Source: a virus (lineage: Duplodnaviria; Caudoviricetes). Taken from it: a stretch of DNA of 64,000 nucleotides. Position numbers and translations under genes: made by a program. The notes beneath the pieces are model-generated. The model ran no database searches. It was not told the origin of the DNA and worked only from the letters and a program-made list of their open reading frames with translations. Positions 201 through 51,944 of the stretch are shown one piece after another. Each line of letters starts with the position of its first letter. The first letter of the stretch is position 1. The DNA lies in the IMG/VR virus record IMGVR_UViG_3300031908_000002, positions 2,337-66,336 of that record, one strand, 5' to 3'.

Positions 201-778
201 TGGGAGACCGCATGGCTAAGGGAGTTTGGTTTGGAAACGGATTCATCGCGGGGGCGTTGATGATGTTGGCGGGGGCTTCGTTCTGTTGGTACTCGCCACT
301 GGCCCACTCCAGCGACAAGGTGGTTTTGTCGGCGGAGAAGGTCGAGGCGTTGGCGGATTCGACAGCCCCTGTGGTCTACACCACCCCGCCTGAAAAGGGT
401 AACTACCTGATCAACCCGAGGGACGTCCTGTCGGTGTACGACGGCGACACGTTTTTCATCCGCCTGCCGGAGTGCGCGGACAAGCTGCCGTTCCTCTGCG
501 CGAAGATGGGGGTGCGGATCATGGGGATGGACACCCCGGAACGCAAAGGACTTTGCGAATCGGAGAAGAAACAGGCGGCGCTGGCGCAGATTCAGCTTGA
601 GGTCATGCTGCGCTCTGCAAGGCGCATCGAGCTGGTGAACGTGAAAACGGAGAAGTACGGGCGTCTGCTGGGCGGTCTGATGATCGACGGGCAGGACGTG
701 GTGGAAGACATGGTGCTGTCAGGGATGGCCCGACCGTATAACGGCGGGGCTCGAAAGGGTTGGTGTACCGTGCTGTAA
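200..778 (+). CDS. Thermonuclease / SNase-like nuclease with N-terminal hydrophobic segment
   Basis: Motifs VYDGDTF, RIMGMDTPE, KYGRLL, GMARPYNGG typical of staphylococcal-nuclease fold. Confidence 0.88.
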   Translation: MGDRMAKGVWFGNGFIAGALMMLAGASFCWYSPLAHSSDKVVLSAEKVEALADSTAPVVYTTPPEKGNYLINPRDVLSVYDGDTFFIRLPECADKLPFLCAKMGVRIMGMDTPERKGLCESEKKQAALAQIQLEVMLRSARRIELVNVKTEKYGRLLGGLMIDGQDVVEDMVLSGMARPYNGGARKGWCTVL

Positions 779-810
779 AAGAAAGGCCACCCGAGGGTGG
801 CCTTTTTGTT
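777..810. terminator. Bidirectional intrinsic terminator between convergent genes
   Basis: AAAGGCCACC-CGAG-GGTGGCCTTT (782-805) flanked by A and T runs, between the stops of 200..778 and 809..3742. Confidence 0.85.
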
Positions 811-3742
811 AGGCGTTCAAATATGGCGCGGTCGGTGGGAGGAAAGCGCCGCCGTAGCGCGCCACACTCTTGGTGACCCGCACCTCGTCGATGTAGCCGA
901 TGATCCCCGCAGGCCCAGCGCTGTTGCCTCCGCCGATCTGCAACTTGCCTGTGGAGTTCTTGAACGTGACGCTGGAAGGGGTGGCGGTCGCATGCACCAC
1001 GCCGTTGATGTAGACCCGGAACACGGTGCCAGAATCCCGTTCTACACACACGTGGTACTGGGTGTTAATGGTCGGCGTCCACGCAGCCGACACGTTCGCG
1101 CTGTTGGTACCGTCCGTGGAGTACCACAGCCCGAAGTTGCCGTTCACGAACCCCATGAACCACGACTGTTGGCCACTCGATTCCCACTGCGCGACGATGG
1201 CCTGGGTGTCGGAGCCGCCGGGGAGTGTGGTGAAGTAGACATAGGCCTCAACCGTGAAAAACCCGCTGGCGAAGTCCCAATCCGCATGGTCTGCCAGAGT
1301 CCAGCCGTTGGCGGTGCTGAACTCGGACACCGCAGAGGCCGTGCCGTACTTCTTCACCGCCGTAGAGATTTGACCTGTGCCCTGCGCCGTAATCGTCTTC
1401 GGCGTGCCGGAGTTGTCGGTCGCGGTGGTCTGCCCGTTGGTGCCGTCGAAATGCACCAACAGCTTCACGCTGGAGTAGTAAGGGTCGTTGAGCGTCCAGC
1501 CCTTGGCGGTTGCGATGTCCGTGGTGCTGGATGCGAAGCCCCAGTTGGCGTTGATCGTCAACGTCTTGGCCGAGACGCTTGGCAGGTTGGTGTAAATCTC
1601 GTTCAACTCCGTAGGCCCCAGCATCTGCTGGGTGAAGTTGATGTTGACCTTGATGTTGGTCATAAGCACGCGGGAGATGCTGTAGCCCGGTGTCAGGAAC
1701 GAAGCGAAGTCGGTCACCAGCGTGCAGTTCCAGGCTGGAATTGTGTTCAGCGACAGGCAGCCGTTGAGCATGCTGTTCATGGTGGTGACTTTGGCGGTGT
1801 CAAAGGCCGGCAGGGTTCGCAGGCTACGGCAACCGGTGAACATGCTGGCCATGTTGGTGACGTTGGTCGTGACGAACAGCGGCACCGTTTCGAGCGAGTA
1901 GCACGAGTCGAACATGCTGTCCGTGCGCGTACAGTTCTGGATGTTGAACAGCGGAACGGTTGTTAGGGCCGAGCACCCTGAGAACATGTTTAGGGTGATC
2001 GTCACCGCCGTACCCGTGACGATCTCGACGTACTGCAAGGACTTGCACGCGATGAAGGTGTTCTGAAGGGATGTAGCCGCCGTGAGCGTACCCATCTTGG
2101 CCGACTTCAACGCATAGCAGTTACTGAACATGGCGAAGAAGTTCGTGACGAGCGGCGAGCTGGTCATCTCGAAGGTTTGCAGGTTAAAGCAGTTGAAGAA
2201 CATCGAATCCATGGACAGGCACACGGGCGCAGAAATTACCTGCACCGACGCCAAGGACCAGCAAGAGTTAAACATGCTGCCCATCTGCGTGACCAAGTGA
2301 GTGTCCAAGGTCGGAACGCTGATCAGACTCGTACAGCCGTTGAACATGAAGTCCATGCGCGTGCATTTGGACGTGTCATACGCAGGAATCCCCATCAGGG
2401 CAGGGCAACTGTCGAACATGCTGATCATCTGGGTGACGTTGCCAGTGTTCAACGTTGGCCCCCATTGCAGGGAGGAGCAAGTGACGAACATGCTGTTCAT
2501 GTTCGTCACGCCGGAGGTGGTCGTGATGGTCACGTCCGTCAGCGACCGGCACGTGTCAAACGTCCGGTTCATGTTGAGCAGCGCCGACGTGGTGCCCAGC
2601 AGCTCGACCCTTTGCAGGGCGTAGCAGGTGTAGAACATCTGGGTCATGTCCGTCACTGCCGTGCAGGGCGTCAACGTCGCAGTGATCAGGTTGTGACAGA
2701 GGTAGAACATCTGGGTCATGTTCGTCACTTTCACAACGTTGAACGCCGGGATCGAGATCAGCCCACGGCAGCCGTTGAACATGCTGGACATGTTCGTGAC
2801 GTTGGCGGTGTTGAACAGCGGTACCGTTTGCAGCGCCGGGCAGTTGTTGAACATTTGGGACATGTTCGTGACGCTTTGCGTGTCAAACAGGTCCACCGTG
2901 CGCAGGGATGTGCAGTCCGAGAACATGGTGTTGCAGTCGGTGAGGGATGCCAACGTACCCGTAATGCTGGCGCTGATCAGCGAGGTACAGCCGTTGAACA
3001 TGCTGGCCATGCTGGTGGTCCCGGTGGCCGCTGTGATCTCCGCCACCCTCAGCCCATACACGTTAATGAACATGAAACTGAGGTTGGTCACCGCCGTACA
3101 GTTCAGCTTGACCTTGCGCAGCGCCCACATACGAGCGCTGGAGCCAGAGTTGCCCGGATAGACGTTGGAGCCCAGCATGAGCGACGTCAGGGTGGTCGAG
3201 GCGATGTGCAAGTCCAGCCACTGCATGCTGTGCTGGGTCAGCCCTTGGTGCTCGTTCGGCTGCACGTTCAGGTTGATGTTGGTCAGGGTCTGCCCCGACT
3301 GCGGATAGACCTGAATGATGACCTGCCGGAAGCCCTCGCTGGTCAGCGTGCCGGAGCTGATCGTCGACCAGACGTAGTTGTGCTGCGCCGTCACGTTGGT
3401 GGCGTAGTCCGTTACGGTGCCATCACCCCAGTCCACGGTGTAGGCGCCGGTACACTTGATCGCCACAACGTTGGTTTGCTGGTCGTACACGCCGAACAGG
3501 CCCACCAAGCGGGTGTCGCCCGCCGTGATGGATGGCAGCGACAGCCAGTCGCCGGGGCGGGTCCACGACGGTTCCGTGTAGTTGGCCGGCTGCGACGGGC
3601 GCGGGTAGTACGCGATGGACGCGATCTTGGCGGCGTAGGTGTTGTAGGCCGCACTGCCCACGGTTACGCCCTTGCCTTCGATAGCGGCCTTGATCGCCAG
3701 TTTGATGTCGTTCAAGGCCGTCAGTTGCGTTGCGATGGTCAT
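809..3742 (-). CDS. Tail fibre/receptor-binding protein with about 20 BspA/DUF285-like 24-aa repeats and C-terminal ConA-like (LamG) lectin domain
   Basis: Repeats of type T.VTNM..MF..C.SL..VP.F; C-terminus VKLLVHFDGTNG...FTVEAYVY...YIDEVRVTKSVARY. Confidence 0.75.
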   Translation of the reverse strand: MTIATQLTALNDIKLAIKAAIEGKGVTVGSAAYNTYAAKIASIAYYPRPSQPANYTEPSWTRPGDWLSLPSITAGDTRLVGLFGVYDQQTNVVAIKCTGAYTVDWGDGTVTDYATNVTAQHNYVWSTISSGTLTSEGFRQVIIQVYPQSGQTLTNINLNVQPNEHQGLTQHSMQWLDLHIASTTLTSLMLGSNVYPGNSGSSARMWALRKVKLNCTAVTNLSFMFINVYGLRVAEITAATGTTSMASMFNGCTSLISASITGTLASLTDCNTMFSDCTSLRTVDLFDTQSVTNMSQMFNNCPALQTVPLFNTANVTNMSSMFNGCRGLISIPAFNVVKVTNMTQMFYLCHNLITATLTPCTAVTDMTQMFYTCYALQRVELLGTTSALLNMNRTFDTCRSLTDVTITTTSGVTNMNSMFVTCSSLQWGPTLNTGNVTQMISMFDSCPALMGIPAYDTSKCTRMDFMFNGCTSLISVPTLDTHLVTQMGSMFNSCWSLASVQVISAPVCLSMDSMFFNCFNLQTFEMTSSPLVTNFFAMFSNCYALKSAKMGTLTAATSLQNTFIACKSLQYVEIVTGTAVTITLNMFSGCSALTTVPLFNIQNCTRTDSMFDSCYSLETVPLFVTTNVTNMASMFTGCRSLRTLPAFDTAKVTTMNSMLNGCLSLNTIPAWNCTLVTDFASFLTPGYSISRVLMTNIKVNINFTQQMLGPTELNEIYTNLPSVSAKTLTINANWGFASSTTDIATAKGWTLNDPYYSSVKLLVHFDGTNGQTTATDNSGTPKTITAQGTGQISTAVKKYGTASAVSEFSTANGWTLADHADWDFASGFFTVEAYVYFTTLPGGSDTQAIVAQWESSGQQSWFMGFVNGNFGLWYSTDGTNSANVSAAWTPTINTQYHVCVERDSGTVFRVYINGVVHATATPSSVTFKNSTGKLQIGGGNSAGPAGIIGYIDEVRVTKSVARYGGAFLPPTAPYLNA

Positions 3743-7647: not shown

Positions 7648-7725
7648 GGCGGGGCTCCTTCGCAAAGGACTTTGCAAATTGAGTCTAGGCGCAGTTCGTG
7701 GGTAGTGGCAGGGGGCCAGATAACA

Positions 7726-9456: not shown

Positions 9457-9981
9457 GGTGGCCGGGGGCCAATGGCCCAGCCCCGCCGGGGTGATCTGCC
9501 CCATGGTTGGAATGGGCACCCCGGACGGGCCGGTACCCTAAAGTGAAGGGGGTCTCTTTAGGGGTGCGTGGAGGTTACTAGGGGCGGGTCGAGGTGTACA
9601 CATGGGATTTGCGGTATCGGACGAATGGTTAGGGGGTCTGTCCGCCTGGGTCCGGTGCCGTCCGTCGGTAAAAAGTGTGGTGGGGGTGTACTTGGCACAC
9701 TTTAAGCAAGGCATTTATCCTATGTGGACACCTTGTAGCACGTCACTGCCCCATGCCTGCCGCACTTCTATATGCCTGCCGTCCGCCGTCCGCTAGACCA
9801 TGCCCCGCCGTGTTACAATGGGCTTGTGTACAATGCGACCAACGGTCACGCCTTGCCTTGCACACTTTGCGAACTCGCATAGACTCTCAGTAGGCCAATG
9901 GATGGCTAGATGAGAATGAGAATCATTCTTGTTTACTCGCAAAGGGCTTTGCGAACCTTCTTACCTATCGGAGTCTTCATC

Positions 9982-11290: not shown

Positions 11291-12189
11291 TGGCTTTCCA
11301 GTTCCCCGGCCCCGTCAGGGGGCCACCCACCCCGGCCTTCGCAAAGGGCTTTGCGAAGGCGGCGTCATGTAGCAGGTGCGCGCACCTCACGCCAGTGCCT
11401 GGGATTTTCGCAAAGGGCTTTGCGAAGGGCTGCCATATGGCAGGAGGAAGCCGACAAAGGGAAAGGGCTCTCAGTGGGCCATAGCGCGAGGAAAGCGCCC
11501 CCCGGCGACGTTAAACGCGAAGGCGCCCCCGGTGAACTCATTAGGGAAGTTTCAGGGGCGCCCCGGCCCAGACCCACAGGAGCCAGCGCAGCACAGCCAG
11601 CAGGTGCCGCAGAGGCTCTCACACTCGCAAAGGGCTTTGCGAAGGCCTTCAGGGAGGCAAAAGGACTATCGCCTTCTCTTCTACTACTTACTTTCTTATA
11701 TTATTTGTATTTAAGTATCTAGTAGTAGTGTTTCAAGTACACGGTTTTTTGCAAAAGTGCTCGAAAGAACTTCCAAACTTGTGGAGGAAGCAGGCAGCGT
11801 GCGTGTCTGACGCTCTCGCAACCCATGCTTTTCCCCTGCTCCTTCCACCCAAGCCGACCCCCCGGAACAGGCCCCAAGCCACAAGGAATAAGGCTCTCAG
11901 CCCGATCAACCATGACACCGTGTACAGAGCACCGACTATCTATAATCGAACGAATATGTACATAGCACCACGACATGGAAAAAGTCTGTCAACCCCCCAA
12001 ACAGGAGAATTTTGTAACAGTAAAGAGACTTGTGTACTAGGCCCACACTGTGCCTCGAAAAATCCGTGTACCTATACGGTCAAAACTGTACAAAGCACGG
12101 TTACTTGTACCATGCGGCGATAAAATTTTTCCAAAATGATACCCAATTTTTACTTGACAGCCCTAATAACCCAGTCCCACAGCCACACC

Positions 12190-12447: not shown

Positions 12448-13138
12448 TCCCTTACTTCCTGTTAAACGCATCACTTACATCTTGATCCAGCGCGTCCCTT
12501 ACTTCTTGTCAAAGCCCCTAGATACGTGGCTTTGCGGGAAACCAGCTAAGAACGCGACGAATGCCCCCTGCCGTAGCTAGGCGAAGTAGGGGGAGGGGGT
12601 CAGGGGCATCCCTTACTTCCTGTTAGGGTCCGCCCCTTACATCCTGTTAGGGTCCGTCCCTTACTTCTTGTTACGAGCTATCCCTTACATCTTGATCCAC
12701 CGCATCACTTACATCTTGTCAAAGCCGCTTCGCAAAGGGCTTTGCGAAGAAACAGGCAATCCCTTACATCCTGATCCAACCCTGATCCTTCAACGAGGAA
12801 CCGAACCATGAACAACGCCATCGCCATGATGTGGGCCTACTACGGTCACATCGCTGAACTGCTGTACCAATGGATTGAACGCCAGTTTCCCGGCTATCCG
12901 GCGCTGGTGTTGCTCGCCCCGATGTGGCCGATGATCCTCACCGTGGTCATCGTCCTGATCGCCAACGAAGTGAGCCACCGCCTGATGCTGCGGCGCCTGC
13001 GTAGGGACATCGCAGCCCGCCGTGCCCGTGCCATACAGGAACGGGAAGCGGCCAGCCGAGTCCCTGCGGATCGTCATTGACTACCCCCGGTAGCCATCCC
13101 TTACATCTTGTTCCACCCGCTATCCCGTACATCTTGTT
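12448..13138. repeat. Direct-repeat array, 11 copies of TC(C/A)CTTAC(A/T)TC(C/T)TG(T/A)(T/C)
   Basis: Units at 12448, 12471, 12495, 12609, 12633, 12657, 12681, 12705 (five at exact 24-bp period), 12760, 13097, 13123. Confidence 0.9.
12808..13080 (+). CDS. Hypothetical membrane protein (90 aa)
   Basis: GAGGA SD, hydrophobic central helix. Confidence 0.7.
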   Translation: MNNAIAMMWAYYGHIAELLYQWIERQFPGYPALVLLAPMWPMILTVVIVLIANEVSHRLMLRRLRRDIAARRARAIQEREAASRVPADRH

Positions 13139-13216
13139 CCACCCCCGGCTCGCAAAGCCCTTTGCGAAGTGAAGCGACAAGCGAGCCCACCTTCATCAAA
13201 GTAGGAGCAACACACC

Positions 13217-13471: not shown

Positions 13472-13474
13472 GTC

Positions 13475-13840: not shown

Positions 13841-13890
13841 AGCCCTTCGCAGCGTGCTCGCAAAGCACTTTGCGAGGGGCTTTTGTGTTT
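13841..13890 (+). terminator. Long terminator hairpin mutually exclusive with a palindrome copy
   Basis: 13841-13858 pairs with 13864-13881, followed by TTTGTGTTT; palindrome 13857-13876 overlaps it. Confidence 0.55.
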
Positions 13891-14565: not shown

Positions 14566-14645
14566 CCACTAAAAGACGAAGGGTTCGCAAAGGGCTTTGC
14601 GAACCTGTTCCCCGAAGTTAGCAACACGATTGAAGGAGATCGACT

Positions 14646-15408: not shown

Positions 15409-15469
15409 CCTAACCCCTAACCCCAGCCCTTCGCAAAGTCACTTTGCGAACTATGAAGGAATCAATCCG

Positions 15470-16856: not shown

Positions 16857-17300
16857 ATGTCGATCATGAACGACATCACCAAGTCCGTCGAAGGGGCGGA
16901 CAACCTGTCGATCGTGGTACTGGTCGCTGGCATCGAGGACACCCCCGATCCGGTCACGATGACGTGGCGTCAGGCCCGTGCGCGGCTCGCAAAGCCACTT
17001 TGCGAACTGTACGACGCTTGCCTGCGCTGGGCGATGGACTTGGAAAACTACGGCTTCAAGGTCACCAAGCTGGAGTTCACCACCAACCTCGAAGTCAAGG
17101 ACCGGATACGGATGAGGGTCTGTGCGCTGGACTACAACGGCACCTCGCACTCCTGCTCCGGCAACTGCATGTTGGAAGAGGACACCCTGCCCAAGCACGG
17201 CGGAGCGACCTTCCTGTACCTGAGCAGCAACCTGCAAGAGTTGGAAGACCTCTACGAAGACGCGGTGTACCGCCAGCGGGAAAAGGAGAAGCAGTCATGA
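16857..17300 (+). CDS. Hypothetical protein (147 aa), contains intragenic palindrome
   Basis: Packed ORF; palindrome encodes AKPLCE. Confidence 0.65.
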   Translation: MSIMNDITKSVEGADNLSIVVLVAGIEDTPDPVTMTWRQARARLAKPLCELYDACLRWAMDLENYGFKVTKLEFTTNLEVKDRIRMRVCALDYNGTSHSCSGNCMLEEDTLPKHGGATFLYLSSNLQELEDLYEDAVYRQREKEKQS

Positions 17301-18769: not shown

Positions 18770-18809
18770 CCTTCGCAAAGCCACTTTGCGAACTAAGAAG
18801 GAGACAACC

Positions 18810-20831: not shown

Positions 20832-20888
20832 CCAACACCTTCGCAAAGCCACTTTGCGAAGGATTCCTTCATTCAGGAGAGCAACAAG

Positions 20889-21254
20889 ATGGCAACTCTT
20901 ACCTTTGAAGTCGAAGTCCACTTCGACGATGACTGTTCGCTGGTCACCAGACCGGACAAAGCCAAGGTCACGATCAGCACCCTCGACGTGCTGACGTGGC
21001 TGCACTGGACCAAGGTGATCAAGGCCGAGAACCTGTACAAGGTCGAGGCCTGGGACCACCGCTGCGTTTTCTACAACGAGGTCGAGCCGTTTGTCCTCGA
21101 AGAGAACACCGAGTTCCGGCAGGAGGCAGCCCGCGTCGTGGTTGACGACGGCGGCGTGTGCTTCGAGGGCTTCGAGAAGGGCGGCAACACGCGCACCGGT
21201 TGGTCAACCGAAGAACTGACCTTAGAAGACCTCGCAAAGCAACTTTGCGAATAA
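20889..21254 (+). CDS. Hypothetical protein (121 aa), ends in a palindrome copy
   Basis: AGGAG SD; last codons AKQLCE. Confidence 0.7.
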   Translation: MATLTFEVEVHFDDDCSLVTRPDKAKVTISTLDVLTWLHWTKVIKAENLYKVEAWDHRCVFYNEVEPFVLEENTEFRQEAARVVVDDGGVCFEGFEKGGNTRTGWSTEELTLEDLAKQLCE

Positions 21255-23604: not shown

Positions 23605-23927
23605 CAAAGAAACTACGCACCGGAACTCGCAAAGAACTTTGCGAGGTACACCGGATACCGGTGCTGAGCACTAAGCACCTCGATAAGGCGACGTGTGCTC
23701 GATTGGACAAGGACCGCAACGATAGCCCGTGGTGCGTCTGTGTGGAGTGGGAGTACGGCTACTTCCTGCACTTCTTCCACCCGGACATGCCCGTGGAGAA
23801 AGAGCCATTGCCGAAGTGTCTGCAAGACCTACGCAAGTGGCTCGAAGACAACGGATTCACCGACCGCTGGGTGCGTCTGGATACCCACGCCCTCGTGCAG
23901 CCGGAACTACCGATCTACCACCCGTGA
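23601..23927 (+). CDS. Hypothetical protein, intragenic palindrome
   Basis: GTGA overlap; palindrome encodes RKELCE. Confidence 0.6.
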   Translation: MTKKLRTGTRKELCEVHRIPVLSTKHLDKATCARLDKDRNDSPWCVCVEWEYGYFLHFFHPDMPVEKEPLPKCLQDLRKWLEDNGFTDRWVRLDTHALVQPELPIYHP

Positions 23928-24616: not shown

Positions 24617-24669
24617 CCCACCGGCTCGCAAAGTGACTTTGCGAGCCCCCTTCATCAAGGAGTACAGAA

Positions 24670-25889: not shown

Positions 25890-25942
25890 CCAACCCGGCT
25901 CGCAAAGTCCCTTTGCGAGCCCCCTTCACCGAGGACTGCAAC

Positions 25943-27039: not shown

Positions 27040-27722
27040 AACTGATCAGGCTGGATAGCGTGACCATCGCCCGTGGCGATGACATTGATATTGGCGTCCT
27101 GTACGGCACGCTGGCCACGCTGCTGTACGGCGAGCTGGACAGTGCGGTGCATGGCAAACATCTGGCAGGCCGGATCGACACTGGCCACGACCGCCTGATG
27201 GGTGGCGCGCTGATGTATGCCACCTACGCCTACCAGACCTTGAAGGGCATGGTGGATTGGCGGGCGTTGGAGGACAAGGAAGGCGTCGGCGTGTTCGCCT
27301 ATGACTTCCTCGAAGCGCAGTTCCATGAGGCGTGGGAAGTACGCAAAGACTTTGCGAGCTTCCTGCTGCGGGAAACCCCAGAGAAGGTCTGGTACGAGAT
27401 CGCTGATAACTGGATGGTGCCGGCGGTTGAGGACATGAAGGCGATGATCAATCGCTGGGCGGCAGAGGTAGACCTGCCGCTGATACCCGGAGACCAGTCG
27501 GAGCTGGCGGTCTACACCCGCAAGTTGGAGGCCCACCTGAAGCGCTTCTATGGCCTGGAGTTGAACGACACCTACTACGAAAAGCCGGAGGTGGTCGCCG
27601 GGCTGATGGCGGACAAGGTGCCGGCCTATGAAGCGATCAACCTTCTGGCCGCAGAGTCAGGGCTTGACCGGCTGGACTTCAAACAGGGCGGGCTGACCGC
27701 CGCTGACGACGAGGCAGTCTGA
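27036..27722 (+). CDS. Hypothetical protein, intragenic palindrome
   Basis: GGAGG SD; palindrome encodes RKDFA. Confidence 0.65.
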   Translation: MKLIRLDSVTIARGDDIDIGVLYGTLATLLYGELDSAVHGKHLAGRIDTGHDRLMGGALMYATYAYQTLKGMVDWRALEDKEGVGVFAYDFLEAQFHEAWEVRKDFASFLLRETPEKVWYEIADNWMVPAVEDMKAMINRWAAEVDLPLIPGDQSELAVYTRKLEAHLKRFYGLELNDTYYEKPEVVAGLMADKVPAYEAINLLAAESGLDRLDFKQGGLTAADDEAV

Positions 27723-29113: not shown

Positions 29114-29168
29114 ACGTTTCATCGTTCGCAAAGCTGCTTTGCGAGCCACCTTCAGAGAGGGCAACACC

Positions 29169-30611: not shown

Positions 30612-30642
30612 TCACAAAGAACTTTGCGAAAGGAATACCCCG

Positions 30643-33230: not shown

Positions 33231-33675
33231 TTGCATTTCTTTCTACGACGAACTGCGCTTCGACACGCGCAACCCTGAGTTCACCAGCGTCTCCGTGTTC
33301 ATCCGCTGTGAAGGCGACTGTCCGTTCTTCATGCACGGTTGGCATCGCAAAGACTTTGCGAAGAGCATCCCCACTCAGGAGATTTTCAACCTGATCTGGA
33401 CCGGGCAGGAATCCCCGATGGAATGGGACCGGGTGGCGCCAGCCCCTGTTCTGGCCCCGGTGATCTTCAACCCGTGGGACCGCATCCCGGTGCCCGTGGA
33501 ACAACTGGTGTCGTGGCGCGTGGCCCTGAATAAAGGTTGCGATCAGGCCATGGGCGACGAACTGGCCGAGCAGATCAACGGCCACCTGACCAGCGTGCCG
33601 CAGTGGGACAAGTGCTGCCCGACCTGTCAGGCCCACGACATGATGATGCAAGTGCAGAGGAACCCGCCGCAATGA
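33223..33675 (+). CDS. Hypothetical protein, intragenic palindrome
   Basis: AAGGAGG SD; palindrome encodes RKDFAK. Confidence 0.65.
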   Translation: MADCISFYDELRFDTRNPEFTSVSVFIRCEGDCPFFMHGWHRKDFAKSIPTQEIFNLIWTGQESPMEWDRVAPAPVLAPVIFNPWDRIPVPVEQLVSWRVALNKGCDQAMGDELAEQINGHLTSVPQWDKCCPTCQAHDMMMQVQRNPPQ

Positions 33676-36086: not shown

Positions 36087-36237
36087 TGTGCCTGTATGAC
36101 ACGTCACCAGATAATTGGGACCATCTGCTCGACATTGGCTTTTTGGCTATTGTCGTTGCAATGGCGCTGCTGCTTGAGAAGCGCCATAAACGCCCCTGAT
36201 CTCGCAAAGTCCTTTGCGAACAACCGAGGAAACATAG

Positions 36238-36560: not shown

Positions 36561-37412
36561 ATGCTGTTCAACGTAGCGCACCGCTTCTACGCGGACCTGA
36601 ATCTCGTCCTGCTCTACCTGCCGGACGAATGCAATCTCGACAACTTCGAGGACGAGGACCTGCCGCTGGACATCGTGCCAGACGTCACCACGTCCACGGA
36701 GCATGTCACGGAAGGCGGTGGACGGTACGCCCACGCCTCGTCCACCGCCTACCTGCGCCTGGAACCTTACGACAGTGAGGCGGCGTACCAACACCTGCCT
36801 GAGCCGGTAAAGAAGGCCTATCAGGCGTTCTCGAACAAGCTGGGTGAGGTGCTGAAGAACCAAGAGTGGGGCGTACAGCTCCGCCAAGCCGTGGCGCTGG
36901 CCTATCAGGTCGAGGCAGGTTTGCAGCGGACCCCGCCTCGCGTGCATCTGGAGCTGACGGTCGACATCCCCTACTCGGTCAAGGGGCTGCGCACCGTGGA
37001 AGCCCAGCGCCAGCGCGCCGAGGATGCGGCGGCATTGGCAGGGCACAAGCTGCGCACCACCCTGCTGCTGGAGGCCAAGCGCGCTGTGGCGAGGATGCAG
37101 GAGGTGTTGGTTGTCGCCCTCGAAGCCTTCAACGCCCAGCAGGTGAAACCCCTGCTGACCCAGATCGACCTCGGCCTGTGGCCTCAGAAGGCCTATGCCG
37201 CCGACGTGGAGGCTTCGCACGAGCGATACCGGAACATCCAGAACGAGCTGGCCAAGATGCAAATCGAGGCTGACATGCTCTGGAAGGCATACAGCGAGAT
37301 GTACAAGTCGTCGGTCGCAAAGGACTTTGCGAACGACTTCCCTACCGACTCGCTGCTGGAAAACGTGTTAACCCGCAACATCAACCGCTTCAATCCCCTG
37401 CGCTACCTGTGA
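36561..37412 (+). CDS. Hypothetical protein (283 aa), intragenic palindrome
   Basis: CCTTCA leader; palindrome encodes AKDFAN. Confidence 0.7.
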   Translation: MLFNVAHRFYADLNLVLLYLPDECNLDNFEDEDLPLDIVPDVTTSTEHVTEGGGRYAHASSTAYLRLEPYDSEAAYQHLPEPVKKAYQAFSNKLGEVLKNQEWGVQLRQAVALAYQVEAGLQRTPPRVHLELTVDIPYSVKGLRTVEAQRQRAEDAAALAGHKLRTTLLLEAKRAVARMQEVLVVALEAFNAQQVKPLLTQIDLGLWPQKAYAADVEASHERYRNIQNELAKMQIEADMLWKAYSEMYKSSVAKDFANDFPTDSLLENVLTRNINRFNPLRYL

Positions 37413-40865: not shown

Positions 40866-43760
40866 ATGTACAGGTACTATCAGCGGCACGAGAAGGACTC
40901 GTGGTTCGTCATTTCTGATAAAGGCGGTGAAGAGGTTGTTGCCACTGCCCTGTCGAATGGCGCGAAGAAACTCACCATCCTCACCATCAACCAGATGGTT
41001 CAGGATGGTGACGATCCCGACCACCCAAGGAACCGGGACAGCCTCGCATACCGAGGCCCCCTGTACTTCGACATCGACTGCAAGGGCGACTTGGCCCAGG
41101 CCATTGCCAGCGGCAACGAGCTGGTGCAGCGCCTGCTGACCCTTGGCACGCCCGAGGCCGGGATCAAGATTTACCTGTCTGGCTCGAAGGGGTTGCACAT
41201 CCTTGTGGATGAGCGCCTGTTCTCGTCGGGGCGGTTCTTCAAGCGCCTGCCCGAGATTTACAAGGAAATGGCCCGCGACCTGTACGTGGCAGGCGTGGAC
41301 TACTCCGTCTATTCCGGTGGCCGTGGCAACAGCTTCCGCATCCCCAACGTGGAACGGTTCGACGGACGCTACCGGGTGCCGGTGACTGTCACTGAGCTGA
41401 TGGCGCTGGACCCTGATTTGTACCTGACACTGGTCAGCGGGCCTCGCAAAGTCCTTTGCGAAGAGGTGCCCAAGGTTCCGGTGCCGGAGCTGTCGGCCCT
41501 GTTCGACGCAGCCAAGAAGCGCATCGGTACGGCTCAGAAGGTGGTGATCATTGCCACCTCCAGCGAGCTGGAAAAGATTCGCTTCGAGCCGCCGACCTGC
41601 GTCCAGATGCTCTGCGATGGCAAGAACCTGAAGAGCGAGGCCAACTTCAACCAAGTGGCGACCCAGCTTGCGGCGTACATCGTCCGGGCAGGGGTTGAGC
41701 CGATGGTGGCCGATGCTCTGGCGTCCCGTGCCGCCGAGGCCAACCACTCCAGCAAGTACCACAACGCCCGGACGCGCCGTGAGCATATCGAAGCGCAAAT
41801 CCGCTACGTGGAGCACACGCCGGGATTCTCGTTCGGCTGCAACGCCATCCGCGCCTTGCTGGGCAAACGCCCGTGCGAAGGCTGTGCGATTGAGGCCGGC
41901 AGCAACGCGGACGGGGAAGGCAACGACTCCGACATCAGCGCAGAAACCCGCGTGGACGGATACTACGTGCGCTATGGTGATAACTGGAGACGTGTAACCA
42001 ATTTCGTCCTGCAACCGCAGGACGTGGTGATCGAGGTTCCGCAAGACGGAAGGTCACCCCGCCGCACGGCCACCAACATGGGGGTCTTTAAGGGCGGTGT
42101 GCAGGATGGGAAGATCACTTTCAAAGAGAGTTCGTTCAGTGGTCGCTCCACCTTCCTGAAAGAGATCGAAGGGATTTCCGACCTGACCTTCCAAGGGTCA
42201 GACGGGGACGTGCAGCGGATCAAGATTGCTATCTTCAAGGAGGCTCAGGACGTGGGTGAGGTTTTTAAAGTCTATACATCCGGCATTCATCTGGACTTCG
42301 TAGGCGACGAACCTGTCTTCACCTACGTTGAGCCGGACATGTCGATCAACAACATGAAGGTCAAGGGCACCCACCAATTCTCCGGGGAGCTCCAGGCTCG
42401 TCCGCACTTCGGCAAGGCTTCGGTCCCCGAGGTGGGCGACAAGGCCACGGACATGGCGCTGTCGGCCATGTTGCGGATCAACAAGCCCATCGAGATCGGC
42501 GTCATTGTCGGGTGGTCCTCGGCCTGCCACTACAAGACCCACCTGATGTACCTGCACAACCAGTTCCCGGTTCTGAGCCTGTGGGGTTCGGCTGGCTCCG
42601 GTAAGTCGATCACCGCAGGCATCGTGACGTGGATCAACGGCACCGACTACATGTCGCTGGACTCCGGCATCAACGCCCCGAGCGCCACGTCCTACGGGAT
42701 GCTCGACTACCTGTCGTCCACCACGACGATTCCCCGCATCATCGAGGAATACAACAAGTCGAAAATGGAGCCGAGGCAGTTCAAGGAAACCGGCGAGCGC
42801 ATCAAGCAGACTTGGGGCGGTGAGTCCGCGATCAAGGGCAAGATCGGCGGCAACGGCATGGGCCGGGTCAACGCCGAGACGGTGGTCATCCCCCTGTCGT
42901 CCCCAATCATCGTCTGCTCCGAGCAGGAGATCGAGATGCCGGCGATTCAGGAGCGCTCCCTGCGCATTCACCTGACCAAGCAGAAGCGCGCCGGGAGAAA
43001 GGAACACTTCGAGTACGCCCGGAAAAACCGGAAGTACCTGCGCAGCTTCGGCAAGGCGCTGATGATTCAGGCGATGAACACCACGCTGGTTGAGATGGAA
43101 GCCCTGATGGACGAGGCCAGCGCCCTGCTGCCCGATTCCATGGACGACCGCCCGCGCTATTCGTTGCAGGTCGCCATTGTCGGACTGTGGCAGGCACGCA
43201 AGGCTGCCGCTTCCCTGAAACTGACCGAGGCTGAGAGCCTGCTGGACGATTACGCCAATCAGTTGATCGCCAAGTACAGCCGTGCTGCGGCGAAGGCCCG
43301 CGAAGACGAAGACGAACTGCTGAACATGGCTTCCGGCGACGGCTTGGTTGGCACCGTGGTCCAGTCGGAAACCGATATTGTCGTGGCCAAGATGGCGATG
43401 GTCATTGCGCTGTCGAAGGGCGCGGAAGCAGCAGGGGCGTCGGTCGTTGCCCTGCGCGAAGGCCTGCAATACTTCGTTCCGCCGAAGGGCGAGTTCCTGA
43501 TCATCGACCCGATTTTCTGCTTCGTGGCCTACGTCCAGTTCGTCACCAGCCATGAACGTCAGCAGCCGGTCATCAGCAACGTCAGCCAGTTCCTGAAACT
43601 CGTCATGGAAGAGCCTTACTTTGCCGGCCTGAAAAAGTTCGAGCGCATGGGCGACAGCCGCCCGATGCTGTTCCTCAACATCGAGAAACTGCGCGAGAAG
43701 AACATCGACACCAGCCTGATTACAGGAGGGGTCAATGATGGATGGTCCCACACTGGCTGA
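40866..43760 (+). CDS. DNA primase (AEP-like)-helicase fusion
   Basis: LYFDID, SGSKGLHI, FRIPN primase motifs; Cys cluster; Walker A GSAGSGKS in C-terminal domain. Confidence 0.8.
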   Translation: MYRYYQRHEKDSWFVISDKGGEEVVATALSNGAKKLTILTINQMVQDGDDPDHPRNRDSLAYRGPLYFDIDCKGDLAQAIASGNELVQRLLTLGTPEAGIKIYLSGSKGLHILVDERLFSSGRFFKRLPEIYKEMARDLYVAGVDYSVYSGGRGNSFRIPNVERFDGRYRVPVTVTELMALDPDLYLTLVSGPRKVLCEEVPKVPVPELSALFDAAKKRIGTAQKVVIIATSSELEKIRFEPPTCVQMLCDGKNLKSEANFNQVATQLAAYIVRAGVEPMVADALASRAAEANHSSKYHNARTRREHIEAQIRYVEHTPGFSFGCNAIRALLGKRPCEGCAIEAGSNADGEGNDSDISAETRVDGYYVRYGDNWRRVTNFVLQPQDVVIEVPQDGRSPRRTATNMGVFKGGVQDGKITFKESSFSGRSTFLKEIEGISDLTFQGSDGDVQRIKIAIFKEAQDVGEVFKVYTSGIHLDFVGDEPVFTYVEPDMSINNMKVKGTHQFSGELQARPHFGKASVPEVGDKATDMALSAMLRINKPIEIGVIVGWSSACHYKTHLMYLHNQFPVLSLWGSAGSGKSITAGIVTWINGTDYMSLDSGINAPSATSYGMLDYLSSTTTIPRIIEEYNKSKMEPRQFKETGERIKQTWGGESAIKGKIGGNGMGRVNAETVVIPLSSPIIVCSEQEIEMPAIQERSLRIHLTKQKRAGRKEHFEYARKNRKYLRSFGKALMIQAMNTTLVEMEALMDEASALLPDSMDDRPRYSLQVAIVGLWQARKAAASLKLTEAESLLDDYANQLIAKYSRAAAKAREDEDELLNMASGDGLVGTVVQSETDIVVAKMAMVIALSKGAEAAGASVVALREGLQYFVPPKGEFLIIDPIFCFVAYVQFVTSHERQQPVISNVSQFLKLVMEEPYFAGLKKFERMGDSRPMLFLNIEKLREKNIDTSLITGGVNDGWSHTG

Positions 43761-45273
43761 ATACTTCCAGGCGGCGGGTATCCAACGATACCCGGCCTTC
43801 GCACCCTTCGTGCGCTTGGACAAGAAGCCATTCGGTTCGCAGGTGACTGGGCTGTCGCTCTGCGCGCATTACCAGTGGTACGGGTTGCTGGATCAGACCG
43901 GGGCGGGCAAGTCCCTCCCTGCCGTCGCCACCGCCCTGCATTACATCGGCCTCGGCAACAAGGTGCTGGTCGTGACCTTGGCCTCGCTGACCGTCCAGTT
44001 CGCAGAGTCGGTCTACTCCGAGTTCGTCGGCATCGACAAGTACGTCCGGGTCCACATCCTCGACGAGGGGCCGGCAGAGCGGAACGCGCTGATTGCTGAG
44101 TGGAAGAAGAACAACTCGTGGCCGGAAATCATGGTGATGTCCTACGAGATGTTCGCCGTGCGCAAGCTGGATTTGGTGATGAAGGCGGCAGGCTACGACG
44201 TCCTGATCACCGACGAATCGCAGAAGTGGAAGACCCCCGGCAAGGTGTTCGCCATGCACGTGGAAAACTACGTGGGCAACCCGGAAGACCCGGACACGGC
44301 TTTCATCCCGATGACAGGGACGCCCATGCACACCTGCATGACCGACTGCTACATGCTGGTCAAGCTGCTGTCGCCGGGGCACTACGGCTCCTACGACGAG
44401 TTCATGGCAACCCATTGCGTCTACAAACGGTACAAGCTGAAGGAGCCCCGGATCACCAAGGGCGGCAAGATTCAGCGCTGGTTCACCGTGCTGGACGGCT
44501 ACACCGGGCACGACAAACTCTCGACCATCCTGTACGAGCGGGCGCGGCGCGTGCTCAAGCGGGAGATTCCCGAGCTGGTGGAACTGAAGACGCCGATCAT
44601 CACCGAGGTTCCGGTCAAGCTCTCGCCGCCGCACCTGACGCTGTACAGGAAGCTGCTGGCCGAACGTTTCCTCGAACTGGAAGGCAACGAGGTGATCACT
44701 GCCTTGCAGGAGCAGGACCTTCGCATGAAGAGCTTGCAGATCGTCACCTGCCCGGAAGCCTTCATCCCCGCCAGCCAGACCATCGACAACCACGTGGTCG
44801 CCACCATCCACGACCTGATCGACACCGCAGCCAGCGAGACCAAGGTCATCCTGTTCCTGCATTTCCGCGATACCGTCGAGCGTTATGCAAAGTTCTTTGC
44901 GAAATGGAACCCTGCATTGATCTACGGCGGCGTGGATGCGAACGGCAGGGAGAAGGCTCGCCAGAGCTTCCTGTTCGACGACAACTGTCGCCTGCTGATT
45001 GCCAACCCCAAGTCGGCAGGGGCGGGATTTAACTTCCAGAGCGTGTCCCACACCACGATCTTTGGCGAGCCCATGGCAAGTCCAGGCGACTTCACGCAGG
45101 CGATGGATCGGATCGACCGACCGGGCCAGCGGTACCAGTGCAACATCTACGTCATCAAGGCTCTGTCGACCATCGCGCCGCACGCTATCAAGGAGATGCT
45201 GCGCCGCGATACCGACATCAGCCAAGTCACCCGCGACCCAACAACGCTCCGCCATCTTTACAACTTTGCCTAA
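43735..45273 (+). CDS. SNF2-like superfamily 2 helicase
   Basis: DQTGAGKS, ITDESQK, MTGTP, AGAGFNFQ, QAMDRIDRPGQ. Confidence 0.88.
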   Translation: MMDGPTLAEYFQAAGIQRYPAFAPFVRLDKKPFGSQVTGLSLCAHYQWYGLLDQTGAGKSLPAVATALHYIGLGNKVLVVTLASLTVQFAESVYSEFVGIDKYVRVHILDEGPAERNALIAEWKKNNSWPEIMVMSYEMFAVRKLDLVMKAAGYDVLITDESQKWKTPGKVFAMHVENYVGNPEDPDTAFIPMTGTPMHTCMTDCYMLVKLLSPGHYGSYDEFMATHCVYKRYKLKEPRITKGGKIQRWFTVLDGYTGHDKLSTILYERARRVLKREIPELVELKTPIITEVPVKLSPPHLTLYRKLLAERFLELEGNEVITALQEQDLRMKSLQIVTCPEAFIPASQTIDNHVVATIHDLIDTAASETKVILFLHFRDTVERYAKFFAKWNPALIYGGVDANGREKARQSFLFDDNCRLLIANPKSAGAGFNFQSVSHTTIFGEPMASPGDFTQAMDRIDRPGQRYQCNIYVIKALSTIAPHAIKEMLRRDTDISQVTRDPTTLRHLYNFA

Positions 45274-46213: not shown

Positions 46214-46231
46214 TCTGATCAAGACAGGTAA

Positions 46232-46262
46232 GCCCGGTGGGAAACCACCGGGCCTTTCTTTC
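46232..46262 (+). terminator. Intrinsic terminator
   Basis: GCCCGGTGG-GAAA-CCACCGGGC-CTTTCTTT. Confidence 0.8.
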
Positions 46263-46287
46263 CGCACGCCTGCACAAAGGTAGAGCC

Positions 46288-49200
46288 ATGCTTAAAATTC
46301 CTGGGATCGTCCTGCTCGACATCAAGGGACTGTTGATCCACTCGTACTTTCGCGGCAAAGACCCTGACGCCGTTCTCGACGCCAGCGGCACCCCAGTCAA
46401 CACCTCCGGTTTCGGCCTCCGTACCTTCATTGATGGGTACCTGCGGGGCATCCTCCAAGAGTTCGCCCCCCTGAACATCATTGCAGTTTGGGATGGTGGT
46501 ACGGACTATCGAACGTCGATCTTCCCCAACTACAAGGTCAAGCGGAAAGCCCGCGAGAAGAACGAAGCGCAGGAAGTCCAACTCGCTGACCTGTACAAGA
46601 AGGCGAAGGTGCTGCTGGCCTACATCGGCGCGCACAACGTCATCGTGGCAGGCACCGAAGCGGACGACGTGATCGGCGCGCTGGTCAAGCGGGTCAAGGG
46701 TGTACCGAAGCTGGTCTACACCGTTGACGGCGACCTCGTGCAACTGACCGCCGACGACTGCGTGGTTTTGGTCGGCGGCGAAGTGACCACCGAGTTCGAG
46801 GGCCATCCGCACCACCTGATTCGTCTGTACAAGTCGCTGGTGGGTGACACCTCCGACGAGTACGGCGGCGTGCCGCAGATCGGGCCAAAGGCGTTCCAGT
46901 TCCTGCTGGACACCTACGAGCTGGACGGGATGCAGGAGCTGGAAGCCTGTGTACGGGCCAACGACTTCAGCTATCTCAAGATGGCGGTTGAAGCCACCAA
47001 CTGCAAAGTGTTGAACAAGCTGTACGAAAACCGGGGCATCTGGCGGACCATGTACCTGCTGGCTGACCTCCACCCTGAGTTGTGTCACCGCGCTACGGCC
47101 AAAGAGATCATCCGGCCTGAGTGGTATGTCCGCATGGCGGACGCTGAGCGCGTGAAGCAAGTGCTGCATTCAGCAGGCGCGGACTACATGTTCGACCTGT
47201 TCGAGCCGTTCCTGCCCCGCTTCGCCCTGATCGAAGAAGAGGATGTCCCTGCTACTCTCGATCACTTTCGCAAAGCACTTTGCGAAACCCCCTACGTTCC
47301 TTTCGACTATGAAACCTATGACGCCCTCGGCAAGGACTGGAAGCCAGCCCTACCGGACGCCGCCAAAGGTGACTACGTTGACGTGCTCTCGCAGCGCCTG
47401 ACAGGCGGCTCGTTCTGCTATGGAGCAAACCTCCAGCACACCGTTTACGTCCCTGTTCAACACAAGGACACCGCGAATGCCCCAAGGGATACCCTCGCCC
47501 AGTTTCTGACGTTCATCGAAGAAGCTGAGCTGGACTACGTGGCGCACAACGCCCGCTTCGAGGAACAACTGTCGAAGCAGGACCTGAACTTCCAACTGGA
47601 AGGGCCTATCTGTACCCAGGTCCTTGCCAGCTACGTCGATGAAAACCAGTTCGCCGGCCTGAAGGACCAGACCGCCCTGTACTTCAGCTACGAGCAAACC
47701 CGCTTCAAAGACCTGTTGGAGCAGCACGGCGCCAAGGACATGCGCGACCTGACCGGTGAGCAGGTGCTGGCCTACGGCTGTGACGACTCCTATGTCTCCG
47801 GTCGCCTGTTCATGCTCCAGTACCTGACCCTCTGCCTTGAAGAGCAGTGGGACTTCGCCTACTACCGTGACCGTTTCACCTGTCACCCATTCAACCGGTC
47901 GTTTGAAACCGGCGTGATGATTGACTACGAAGAGATGGAGCGCCTGAAAGCGGCGGACCAGATCACCATCGACACCAACATGCTGCGCATCCGCGAGCTG
48001 CTGTCCGAGAACTGCCGTCAGCAGAATCCGGCAGGGGCGATGGAGCTCAAGCGTGCCGAGGGCGAGGCGCAGATTCGCCTGCACATGTCCAAGGAACTGA
48101 ACCGGGCGCAGGCTTCGGCCAAGCTGGCTGAGTCGGTGATTCGCTGGACCGAGGCCTCGGTGTACGTGCCGTTCACGTCCACGCACCGCCCTGAAGAGTT
48201 CATGCCGACCGCCAAGGGCTTCAGCCGCTGCGCCGAACTGGTGGGGATCAAGACCCCACTGGAGAAGCTGAGCGCTGCCGGCCTGACCGAGTGGCTGATC
48301 AGCATCAAGGCTGACCTGACCGCCGAGGGCGTAGACCCGCGTGCTGACAAGCTGGTCACCCTGTTTGCCGAGTGCGGCATGCAGGAGTTCAAGGAGCGGG
48401 CTGGTTCTGCCTTCAACGCGCTGAAGCAGTACGTCGAGGCCAACATCCTGCACGAGAGCGGCAAGGTGATCGAGTCAGGCTGCGAGCTGAACTTCGGTTC
48501 GGCCAAGCAAATGACCGAGATGCTTTACTGCATGCTGGCCTTGCCGGTACGCATCCGCACCTTCCCTGACCGTGGTTCGCAGCGCGACAAGCTGGGCCTG
48601 GAAGGTGCGCCAAGCACCAACGAAGAGGCGGTGATGGCTGCGCTGGCAGAGGACTGCCCTGAAGGTGACTGGCGCCGTGAGCTTTTGCAGAAGTTCCTTG
48701 AGGTCAAGGAATGCCAGACCCGCTTCTCCCTGTACTACAAGAAGTACCCGTTCTGGAAACACCCACGGGACGGCGCGGTTCACCCCGGCACTCGCAACTG
48801 CGGCACGATCACCCGTCGCCCTGCCGGTGCCAACCCGAACATGCTGGCCGTGTCCAAGGGTCCGCTGCGTGGTATCTACATCCCGCGCTTCCCGAGCCAC
48901 GTGTCGGTATCGCTCGACTTCTCCGGTGAAGAGCTGCGCATCACTGGCTCCGAAGCGAACGACCCGGTTCTGATTGAGGCCTACACAGGCCTGCCGAACT
49001 ACATCGACGAAGACGGCATGACTCGCGCCAACTTCCGCGACATCCACGCCATGACCGGCTGCACCTTCGCCAGTCACGTGCTGGAGCAGGAGCTGGGCAA
49101 GCGCATCCTCGACGAGCTGATCTGGAGCGAAACCGGCACGCTGGACTACGAGCTGTTCTGCAACCTGCTGGACCGCAAGAACCCGGTGTACGAACGCTTC

Positions 49201-49857: not shown

Positions 49858-50174
49858 ACGAGCCGGTGGAGTCGATCAAGCAGCGGTATGAGCGGTTAGG
49901 TATCCGTGATGTCCATGAGCAGGTCCACAAGTTCACCGGCAAACATGGGCGGCTGCTTACGATAACCACCACGTTGTGGGATTACCGCGACTTTGGTGGT
50001 CAGGTGGTCGACCAACAGATTCTTCACCGCGACTACACCTTCAGTGGGATGTCGGTGCAGATGGCCGACACCATGATGGCTTACATCTTGGCCAAGGATT
50101 TCCAGCATGTTGTCGTTTTAATGGATAGCGAAAAAGAAGAAATGGGGGTGGTAGATGATCAAGTTAAACAGTGA
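49854..50174 (+). CDS. Hypothetical protein
   Basis: ATGA overlap. Confidence 0.55.
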   Translation: MNEPVESIKQRYERLGIRDVHEQVHKFTGKHGRLLTITTTLWDYRDFGGQVVDQQILHRDYTFSGMSVQMADTMMAYILAKDFQHVVVLMDSEKEEMGVVDDQVKQ

Positions 50175-51423: not shown

Positions 51424-51434
51424 GGAGTTACACC

Positions 51435-51944
51435 ATGTTCGAGTTCCTGCTGTCGTTGTTCCGCAAGAAGAAGAGTAAGCGCGATCTCGCAAAGGACTTT
51501 GCGAATGAAACGTCGGAACCGGTCTGGCCAAGGGAGGTTAGGCGGCCACAAATGCCACCTGTGAGGAATCCGAGGGCGGCGACACCACCGCCACCGCCGA
51601 AGTTTTCGTCAGCACCGCCACCACCGAGGTCAGCGTCGTCAAGTCCCAGGCCTGCGGATCGCAGCGGGCGCGACGACTACCTGATGAACCCGGCTCACCC
51701 GTTGAGCCCGTTGAACCCGATGAATCAGCCGGACACCCGCAGGGACGAACCGGACTGCGCGCCAGTTCGCTCCCACAGCACGCACCACAGTACGTCGAGG
51801 TCTGACGACGATTACACGCCTTCTCGCTCCCACAGCTCTTGCAGTTCCAGCAGCTACAGCAGCTACGGCGGCGACAGCAGTTCCAGCAGCAGTTCGAGTT
51901 GCGACAGCAGCTCCAGCAGCAGCTCCAGCAGTTCGTGTGATTGA
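51435..51944 (+). CDS. Pro-rich protein with Ser-rich tail, intragenic palindrome
   Basis: AAGGAG SD; ends ...GGDSSSSSSSSCDSSSSSSSSSSCD. Confidence 0.7.
   Translation: MFEFLLSLFRKKKSKRDLAKDFANETSEPVWPREVRRPQMPPVRNPRAATPPPPPKFSSAPPPPRSASSSPRPADRSGRDDYLMNPAHPLSPLNPMNQPDTRRDEPDCAPVRSHSTHHSTSRSDDDYTPSRSHSSCSSSSYSSYGGDSSSSSSSSCDSSSSSSSSSSCD

Follow-up and report, generated by a model that had tools for sequence, protein, structure and literature searches.

Why would a phage write the same short palindrome into the gaps between its early genes and into the genes for its DNA polymerase, primase and helicase, and what reads this element there? The question is raised by a 64,000-nt stretch of DNA (referred to as the window), comprising bases 2337-66336 of the 66,336-bp virus record IMGVR_UViG_3300031908_000002, for which completeness is estimated to be 81%. 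The phage is an uncultured siphovirus. An original prediction, made from the sequence alone, had listed eleven copies of the palindrome within coding sequences and proposed that selection acts on the nucleic acid word, not just at gene starts. The comparisons described below indicate that the palindrome is real and strongly selected, and that it is a variant of a type of element known from other phages but not yet explained.

The palindromes form a sharply bounded family

The consensus of the element is YTCGCAAAG-N1-3-CTTTGCGAR, an 18-20-base palindrome. Searching with the pattern GCAAAG-N(0-8)-CTTTGC, we found 28 copies in the window and 29 in the record, every one with a spacer of 1-3 nt, and detected a further copy with one mismatch at 30612. 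When the 8-base arms were scored with mismatches allowed, 25 copies were perfect, five had one mismatch and one had two. Shuffled genomes gave no copies with zero or one mismatch in the arms, and there were almost no copies weaker than two mismatches, leaving the family sharply bounded. The spacers are 1, 2 and 3 nt long in 4, 16 and 9 copies, respectively, and have many different sequences. Isolated half-sites are at background levels (about 2-6 compared to about 4 expected), which indicates that the palindrome is the unit; it is perfect and lacks a conserved asymmetric flank. Altogether, about 30 copies are present in the 81%-complete record, with 12 inside open reading frames (ORFs) and 18 within 9.9-29.2 kb.

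Outside this record, the 18-base form gave single chance hits only among 185,579 species genomes and single hits only in IMG/VR, and scans of IMG/VR with the palindrome motif and with the SNF2 helicase returned no close relative. No copy was present anywhere in three complete 82-84 kb genomes whose replication proteins are about 60% identical to those of this phage, and a literature search for the palindrome motif itself gave nothing relevant. As far as these genome scans reach, the palindrome is restricted to one narrow clade of phages.

Selection acts on the DNA word inside genes

Genes were called with a codon-usage model, and the palindrome copies were then placed relative to the called genes. 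Considering all genes, 13 hexapeptides are compatible with the motif under any synonymous choice, and 10 of these 13 encode the core, compared to 0.076 expected from codon usage. The intragenic frequency thus exceeds the level set by codon usage.

Comparison with a relative points the same way. The metagenome contig Ga0315912_10000369 (89,318 bp; here relative R) was found by motif scan, and 36 kb in five loci were compared; it aligns with the window at 46106-61539 with 92% identity and at about 12183-20629 with 79% identity. For the nine orthologous copies in R, both 8-base arms are intact in every case (0 substitutions in 144 positions), with spacer sequences changed in six of the nine and spacer length reduced from 3 to 2 nt in two (15431 and 18773). 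The 10 nt adjoining the copies are 68% identical between R and the phage and the next 30 nt are 80% identical, with indels abutting several copies. For the two informative intragenic orthologs, at 16987 and 51487, changes were found at 0/32 arm positions compared to 12/112 positions in the flanks. In all 43 copies from the two genomes, the arms are invariant and there are no compensatory changes. These alignments demonstrate nucleotide-level purifying selection on the arms.

The protein alignments further document how the intragenic sites came about. In the 60% relatives, different residues occupy the same protein positions without an indel: the PolA sequence FRKALCE of this phage corresponds to YVEGLRD, the primase sequence PRKVLCEE to PRVVEVDD, the SNF2 helicase sequence YAKFFAKW to YAEFFADM, and HRKDFAKS in the gene at 33223 to HHKAFPKT. 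The sites therefore arose by amino-acid-changing substitutions, several for each site, in variable linkers of the proteins. For closer relatives P0001 (91% identical in PolA) and P0123 (80% identical in primase), which are represented by protein sequences only, the peptides at these positions are RKVLCE and RKVLCD, respectively. The P0001 peptide is compatible with intact arms, and the A-to-V replacement that it entails would alter the spacer alone. The PolA peptide is absent from relatives at 72% identity or below and the primase peptide from relatives at 66% identity or below. The primase of R has RKVVCE at the position of the copy, which means that this copy is weakened in R. Orthologs that keep the amino acids while synonymous positions vary freely, the pattern expected if the protein were under selection and the DNA were not, are not what we see. 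The proposal that selection acts on the nucleic acid word, and beyond gene starts, is thus borne out by the codon test, by the invariant arms in R and by the creation of sites through amino acid changes.

All eleven of the copies listed in the original prediction were recovered at their positions with their peptides, each within an ORF. Nine lie well inside called genes, while the assignment of the other two, 23627 and 51487, depends on the choice of start codon. The copy at 23627..23644 (RKELCE) is 28 nt past the GTG at 23601, which overlaps the preceding stop codon and has a Shine-Dalgarno (SD) sequence; the copy would be intergenic if the start were the GTG at 23661. The copy at 51487..51504 (AKDFAN), for which the arms are the same and the flanks differ in R, is 54 nt into the ORF 51435-51944, whose ATG at 51435 follows a TAAGGAG SD sequence. 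Given these signals, the upstream starts at 23601 and 51435 are likely correct. Among the 12 intragenic copies, two frames are used six times each and the third is never used. The twelfth intragenic copy is in the record outside the window.

The remaining intragenic copies (all coordinates of palindromes are unstranded) are found along the length of the window. The copy at 541..558 (ACGCAAAG-GA-CTTTGCGA, one mismatch, RKGLCE) is in the SNase-domain gene 212-778, and that at 16987..17005 (AKPLCE), again with the same arms and different flanks in R, is in gene 16857-17300. The final six codons of gene 20889-21254 encode AKQLCE just ahead of the stop codon and carry the copy at 21232..21250. Two copies encode related peptides, RKDFAS at 27341..27357 (1-nt spacer, one mismatch, gene 27036-27722) and RKDFAK at 33345..33361 (gene 33223-33675, where the 60% relative has HHKAFPKT). 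The copy at 37315..37332 (AKDFAN) is in gene 36561-37412. In the replication genes, copies are found at 41444..41461 (RKVLCE) in a variable linker of the primase/helicase gene 40866-43760, at 44885..44902 (AKFFAK, compared to AEFFAD in relatives) in the SNF2 helicase gene 43735-45273, and at 47268..47285 (RKALCE, identical in R) in the PolA gene 46288-49857, within the linker that precedes the ExoI motif. The SNF2 copy, with two mismatches, is the weakest of the family. No internal translation starts were seen on inspection of the sequence downstream of the copies deep inside genes.

We also noted that the ORF 51435-51944 (+), located between the Dda helicase gene and the next gene, encodes a Ser/Pro-rich, low complexity protein of 169 amino acids and was missed by the codon model. 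In the 60% relative, only a 9-nt gap is found at this position.

Copies are densest between small early genes

The 17-18 intergenic copies are located 5-28 nt after a stop codon and 14-62 nt, mostly 16-30 nt, before a start codon, including those in minus-strand units. The density is about 0.93 copies per kb in the early region (9.9-29.2 kb), 0.29 in the middle/replication region and about 0.2 (0.21) in the tail/late region; it is likewise about 0.2 per kb in the late region of R. A separate observation from this part of R is a 2,270-amino acid tape measure protein (L195, 4378-11190), encoded in a region missing from the present record, with one palindrome copy close to the 3´ end of its gene.

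At the left end, the copy at 7660..7677 (one mismatch) is 14 nt upstream of the start of the minus-strand gene 7255-7647, and that at 9937..9954 is found in the divergent control region beside the CsrA gene, 29 nt ahead of the first gene on the plus strand (9982-11067). A group of three to four copies comes next, at 11.3-12.7 kb, where genes are sparse and an AT-rich segment adjoins: 11339..11356, which is within a 12-bp perfect stem, 11408..11425, 11625..11642, which adjoins the AT-rich stretch 11650-12200, and 12730..12747, which is 62 nt upstream of the gene at 12808 and lies within an array of CCCTTACATCTTGT repeats. Intergenic copies follow at 13150..13167 (spacer CC, CA in R), 13858..13875 (followed by a terminator-like T-run; different spacer in R), 14585..14602 (11-bp stem; spacer GG, TC in R), 15431..15449 and 18773..18791 (both with 3-nt spacers that are 2 nt in R) and 20841..20859 (11-bp stem). 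Next are the copies at 24626..24644 (11-bp stem), which is followed by a CCTTCA-SD leader, and 25900..25918, which has the same flanks as the 24626 copy, as well as one at 29126..29144 upstream of a gene for a 480-amino acid protein. Beyond these, the degenerate copy at 30612..30629 (TCACAAAG-AA-CTTTGCGA, one mismatch) is between genes 29169-30611 and 30643-31161, the copy at 36202..36219 is 20 nt upstream of the gene at 36238, and the copy at 57597..57614 is between minus-strand tail genes, with the spacer TC changed to CA in R.

Several other elements are found near these copies. The CCTTCA-SD leader is often located 3´ of intergenic copies. A leader of the form CCTTCA-N2-6-AAGGAG precedes many early genes (13170-29170), for which pairing between CCTT and AAGG can hide the ribosome-binding site (RBS); the sister clade has an analogous leader, CCTGAGAAGG. 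The AT-rich (38-48% GC) non-coding stretch at 11890-12240, between palindrome copies, contains about eight TGTACA-centred repeats (GTGTACA..GCAC) and could be an origin or an operator cluster. At 12440-13140, immediately ahead of the first small early genes, CCCTTACATCTTGT-like 16-mers are arrayed in about 11 units, of which two come directly before the copies of the palindrome at 12730 and 13150.

Beyond 29 kb, the copies recur at gaps of 1.1-6.1 kb, as originally described. The accompanying claim of roughly regular spacing is weakly supported, with a coefficient of variation (CV) of 0.39 and P=0.008 compared to random placement for a region that was chosen post hoc. Adding the late-region gaps of the record and of R gives 13 gaps with a CV of 0.47 and P=0.004, again for regions chosen post hoc; none of the 13 is <1.1 kb and none is >7.3 kb. 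The spacing is suggestive of placement that is more even than random.

Relatives that lack the palindrome

In the sister clade, we found a different, non-dispersed motif of TTCACA repeats, likewise upstream of RBSs, in a few early genes. The 60% relative G003 (L084-L088; 56295-71375 and 3814) has about seven sites with TTCACA-N-TTCACA preceded by TGTGAA, six of which are within about 30 nt upstream of a start codon and most of which are in the early region. No copy of the TTCACA motif was found in the replication genes of G003.

Known elements that do not match

The palindromes do not correspond to several common phage and bacterial signals. They are not a family of intrinsic terminators, given that a T-run is found only at the 13858 (plus strand) and 14585 (minus strand) copies, and the clear terminator that the phage does have, at 11250-11290, is unrelated in sequence. 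Sigma-70 promoters were rejected on the basis that there was no match at the copies, most of which are separated from the start codon by 16-30 GC-rich bases. One sigma-70-like site was found in 9.2-16 kb, not at a copy, a count below the shuffle mean. N4-type hairpin promoters were set aside since neither a giant virion polymerase nor a T7-like polymerase was found in the record or in three complete relatives, and the 2,270-amino acid ORF of R is the tape measure protein. For CsrA targets, GGA is in the sense-strand loop of only 4/29 copies. Scans with Rfam and for tRNAs were empty.

The palindromes as probable docking sites on duplex DNA: a proposed reading

We propose, with a probability of about 0.45, that the palindromes are docking sites for a clade-specific phage DNA-binding protein, forming a network that resembles mycobacteriophage stoperators and the Cluster O repeats and controls transcription. 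From the features of the sites, we infer that a protein reads the duplex DNA and that transcription is affected; this reader is probably phage-encoded and specific to the narrow clade. Each 8-base arm (TCGCAAAG) would be read by one protein subunit, with the 1-3-base centre left unread. At position 9, just outside the arms, the two sides vary independently (TA 16, CA 10, TG 7 and CG 6, compared to 15.3, 10.7, 7.7 and 5.3 expected), which, together with the invariant arms, is expected for two separately read half-sites. The sense and antisense strands fold equally well, giving no sense-RNA signature, and the flanks add no more stability than random coding flanks.

Docking on duplex DNA could also account for where the sites are. 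The cheapest placement would be in the short gaps between small early genes, nearly every junction of which has a site (about one per kb). In long genes, sites would be written into tolerant protein linkers by substitution, such that no stretch longer than about 7 kb is without one. Away from promoters, the bound protein may block, pause or silence host RNA polymerase as it passes, and the outcome would be a graded, timed shut-off that is strongest for early genes, as for mycobacteriophage stoperators.

Candidates for the reader are speculative. Two paralogous 73-amino acid proteins, encoded at 32735-32953 and 33899-34117 (+), correspond to the N-terminal winged-helix domain of CapW/BrxR without the WYL domain (E values of 4e-10 and 4e-8 to PDB chains 7tb5 and 7qfz) and are 42% identical to each other. 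Lacking the dimerising WYL part, this winged helix-turn-helix (wHTH) pair might, we speculate, tolerate a variable spacing of half-sites.

Several observations weigh against docking on duplex DNA. The spacer varies from 1 to 3 bp, even between orthologs, which a rigid dimer on B-DNA should not tolerate. Six of 29 copies are within perfect stems of at least 11 bp compared to 1.65 expected (P about 0.002; P about 0.001-0.005 for stems of 11-13 bp), and this excess of long stems hints at hairpin formation. Complementarity of the flanks of intragenic copies was significant compared to permuted partners and not compared to random coding flanks, and only the excess of stems of at least 11 bp was counted. 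A relative without the palindrome has a 55% homolog of the wHTH candidates, with one copy of the protein in the 60% relative, and the 81%-complete record yielded no cognate protein, repressor, integrase or ParB. Finally, the palindromes are predicted sites, for which we infer both protein binding and the effect on transcription from the DNA alone.

Less probable alternatives: hairpins, cassettes and other signals

The alternative that fares best, at perhaps half the weight of duplex docking, is an RNA hairpin in polycistronic messages, with an 8-bp stem that a phage endoribonuclease or RNA-binding protein would recognise. The element would stabilise the mRNA or be a site of Cas6- or RegB-type processing or inactivation, with the factor cutting, protecting or silencing messages, and the intragenic copies would time the decay of middle messages. 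This is consistent with the location of intergenic copies between a stop codon and the next RBS, in minus-strand units as well, with predicted RNA stems of -7 to -19 kcal/mol, with a spacer whose length is free as for a loop, and with the extended stems of some copies. Both deviations in the core (arm position 7) give G-U pairs in the sense transcript, and one copy together with its U-run is terminator-like, with an R ortholog that forms a 12-bp stem containing one G-U pair. The stems, however, are invariant and do not covary, and the loops are unconserved, though most RNA-binding proteins read the loop. Position 9 gives 10 C-A compared to 7 U-G pairs, the distance to the start codon varies (16-60 nt) and no Rfam family matches. 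The equal folding of the antisense strand and the unremarkable stability of the flanks also argue against an RNA element.

A single-stranded DNA hairpin, formed by either strand, is a more doubtful possibility. It might be a priming signal for the phage primase-helicase, as are ssiA and ssiB of RSF1010, which are read by RepB', or an entry point for recombination or a nuclease, and either role would need a copy every few kilobases. The spacing that is more regular than random, with a largest gap of 7.3 kb over about 100 kb, fits this need, and a palindrome indifferent to orientation and coding status, with a free spacer and some extended stems, would suit it too. Three to four copies are beside the AT-rich non-coding stretch that is a possible origin, the 964-amino acid primase has AEP primase-helicase motifs and SbcCD homologs are encoded. 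Against a single-stranded signal, the higher density in the early region is left unexplained, and the palindrome is missing from the 60% relatives, in which primase, PolA and SbcCD are the same. Moreover, hairpin-specific priming is without support in this primase family, for which there is no PDB or Pfam match to compare.

Taking the two hairpin views together, it is unlikely, though worth bearing in mind, that a dedicated phage enzyme reads the palindromes as RNA or single-stranded DNA hairpins in a genome-wide punctuation system. If so, a hairpin-specific nuclease would process and retire each early and middle message at fixed points, or lagging-strand synthesis by the phage primase-helicase would begin at these signals only. 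On both views, the phage would have been obliged to place the signal within the genes for its own polymerase, primase and helicase.

Still less probable is that the copies are recombination joints or the footprint of a self-spreading cassette, comparable to PeSL cassettes, in which case gene conversion, in place of a reader protein, would maintain their identity. The copies are indeed found at junctions of the early region, which is rich in accessory genes, often fused to the common CCTTCA-SD leader; indels abut several of them in the comparison with R, and the 24626 and 25900 copies have common flanks. The intragenic copies, however, arose by point substitutions without indels in essential genes and were conserved. 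No gene swap bounded by copies was found in the 8.6 kb compared with R, where only small indels abut copies, and there is no attached sigma-70 promoter. The parS, Chi and uptake sequence analogies of the original prediction, for a signal in segregation, recombination-nuclease control or DNA uptake, fit the intragenic positions and roughly regular spacing but are the least probable of all, with no ParB_N protein in the record, a spacer that unlike that of parS is variable, and a perfect, clade-confined palindrome whose isolated half-sites are not enriched, compared to Chi and uptake sequences that are single, oriented, host-wide words. We thus rank docking on duplex DNA first, followed by the RNA hairpin, the single-stranded DNA hairpin, the recombination cassette and lastly the parS, Chi or uptake-type signal, with the remainder left open.

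The phage and its gene content

The host group is probably Pseudomonas, given that primase homologs with 55-57% identity are found in Pseudomonas genomes and that a tail-region protein has an alginate lyase domain. Searches against cultured phages with megablast and blastn gave nothing, and the best protein matches were 26-34% identical, to Vibrio and Pseudomonas phages. The replication and repair set consists of PolA, an AEP-type primase-helicase, SNF2 and Dda helicases and SbcCD. The 964-amino acid primase has the DxD/H motifs and Walker A box typical for AEP primase-helicases, and gave no PDB or Pfam match for comparison. GC skew did not reveal a clear origin.

Also encoded are CsrA, an HU-like protein and many early genes of anti-defence type, including RadC, KlcA-type antirestriction and Lar. 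The CsrA homolog (64 amino acids, 9237-9431, minus strand; Pfam PF02599, E value of 2e-18) is at the divergent control region and has a homolog in the 60% relative. The HU/IHF-family protein (Bac_DNA_binding), encoded at 31199-31480 (+), had no tblastn match (E<=1e-5) in the palindrome-less 60% relative. Anti-defence-type families are concentrated in the early region 12808-29113, with RadC, KlcA-type Antirestrict, Lar, DUF3085, DUF6874, DUF5983, CbtA-like and MqsA-like domains, and these families likewise occur in plasmid leading regions and prophage islands. An uncalled ORF for a 42-amino acid hydrophobic protein at 11115-11290, with a strong SD sequence, is followed by the canonical intrinsic terminator (11250-11290).

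No tyrosine integrase (PF00589), resolvase or CI-like protein or repressor was found in the 81%-complete record, and ParB_N/KorB (PF02195) gave nothing at E<=1. T7-like RNA polymerase (PF00940) is absent from the record and from the three complete relatives. Each of the complete 60% relatives (G002-G004; L289-L292) encodes a small serine recombinase with a resolvase domain. These serine recombinases, together with the occurrence of primase homologs in Pseudomonas chromosomes, suggest that the wider group may include temperate or plasmid-like members.

Comparison with known systems

Palindromic repeats that are dispersed and have invariant arms are seen repeatedly among unrelated phages, as in Cluster O, without an assigned function or reader. 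The present case is unusually clean in that a DNA word overrides amino acid and codon choice in essential replication genes and is unchanged as the flanks and centre diverge, with a different motif replacing it in the sister clade. The likely host group, the short list of candidate readers and the natural series of 1-, 2- and 3-base spacers make its function directly testable.

The closest known counterpart is in the Cluster O mycobacteriophages (Corndog), which are not obviously temperate and have 34 copies of a 17-bp dyad repeat, TGTTCGG-NNN-CCGAACA, whose function is unassigned (PMC4351075). One-third of these repeats are in genes, several just after start codons, and they are denser at one end and not tied to promoters (PMC4351075). 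Our palindromes are similar in that there are about 30 copies with invariant inverted arms and a free centre, denser towards one end, about one-third in genes (12 in ORFs), some of these soon after likely start codons, and not tied to promoters. They differ in that the arms are 8-9 bases here and 7 in Cluster O, the spacer is 1-3 bp here and a fixed 3 bp there, and the sequence and host are unrelated. A further difference is the direct evidence, for our palindromes, of nucleotide-level selection and de novo creation inside replication genes.

Cluster A stoperators are asymmetric 13-mers that follow the direction of transcription and to which the monomeric L5 gp71-type immunity repressor of a temperate phage binds; the twenty to thirty-odd sites, mostly in short intergenic gaps, act on elongating polymerase and not on initiation (PMC9283540, PMC6550527). 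As for these stoperators, many of our sites are in short intergenic gaps away from promoters, and the motif differs between related clades. Unlike stoperators, the site described here is palindromic, and the 81%-complete record yielded neither a repressor nor an integrase.

The PeSL cassettes of T4-type phages consist of a sigma-70 early promoter and a stem-loop, are defined by gene swapping and are not in essential genes (PMC2839356, PMC4122927). They share with our palindromes a conserved element of stem-loop type at junctions of small early accessory genes. The palindromes, in contrast, have no attached sigma-70 promoter and are also found inside essential genes; in the 8.6 kb compared with R, only small indels abut them.

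A last parallel is with the KorB OB operators of the IncP-1 plasmid RK2 and with ParB-parS, for which a dispersed palindrome with fixed spacing, far from promoters and inside genes, is served by one global reader. Here, too, one palindrome extends over the whole replicon, in genes and away from promoters, though with a variable spacer and with no ParB_N or KorB protein found in the 81%-complete record.

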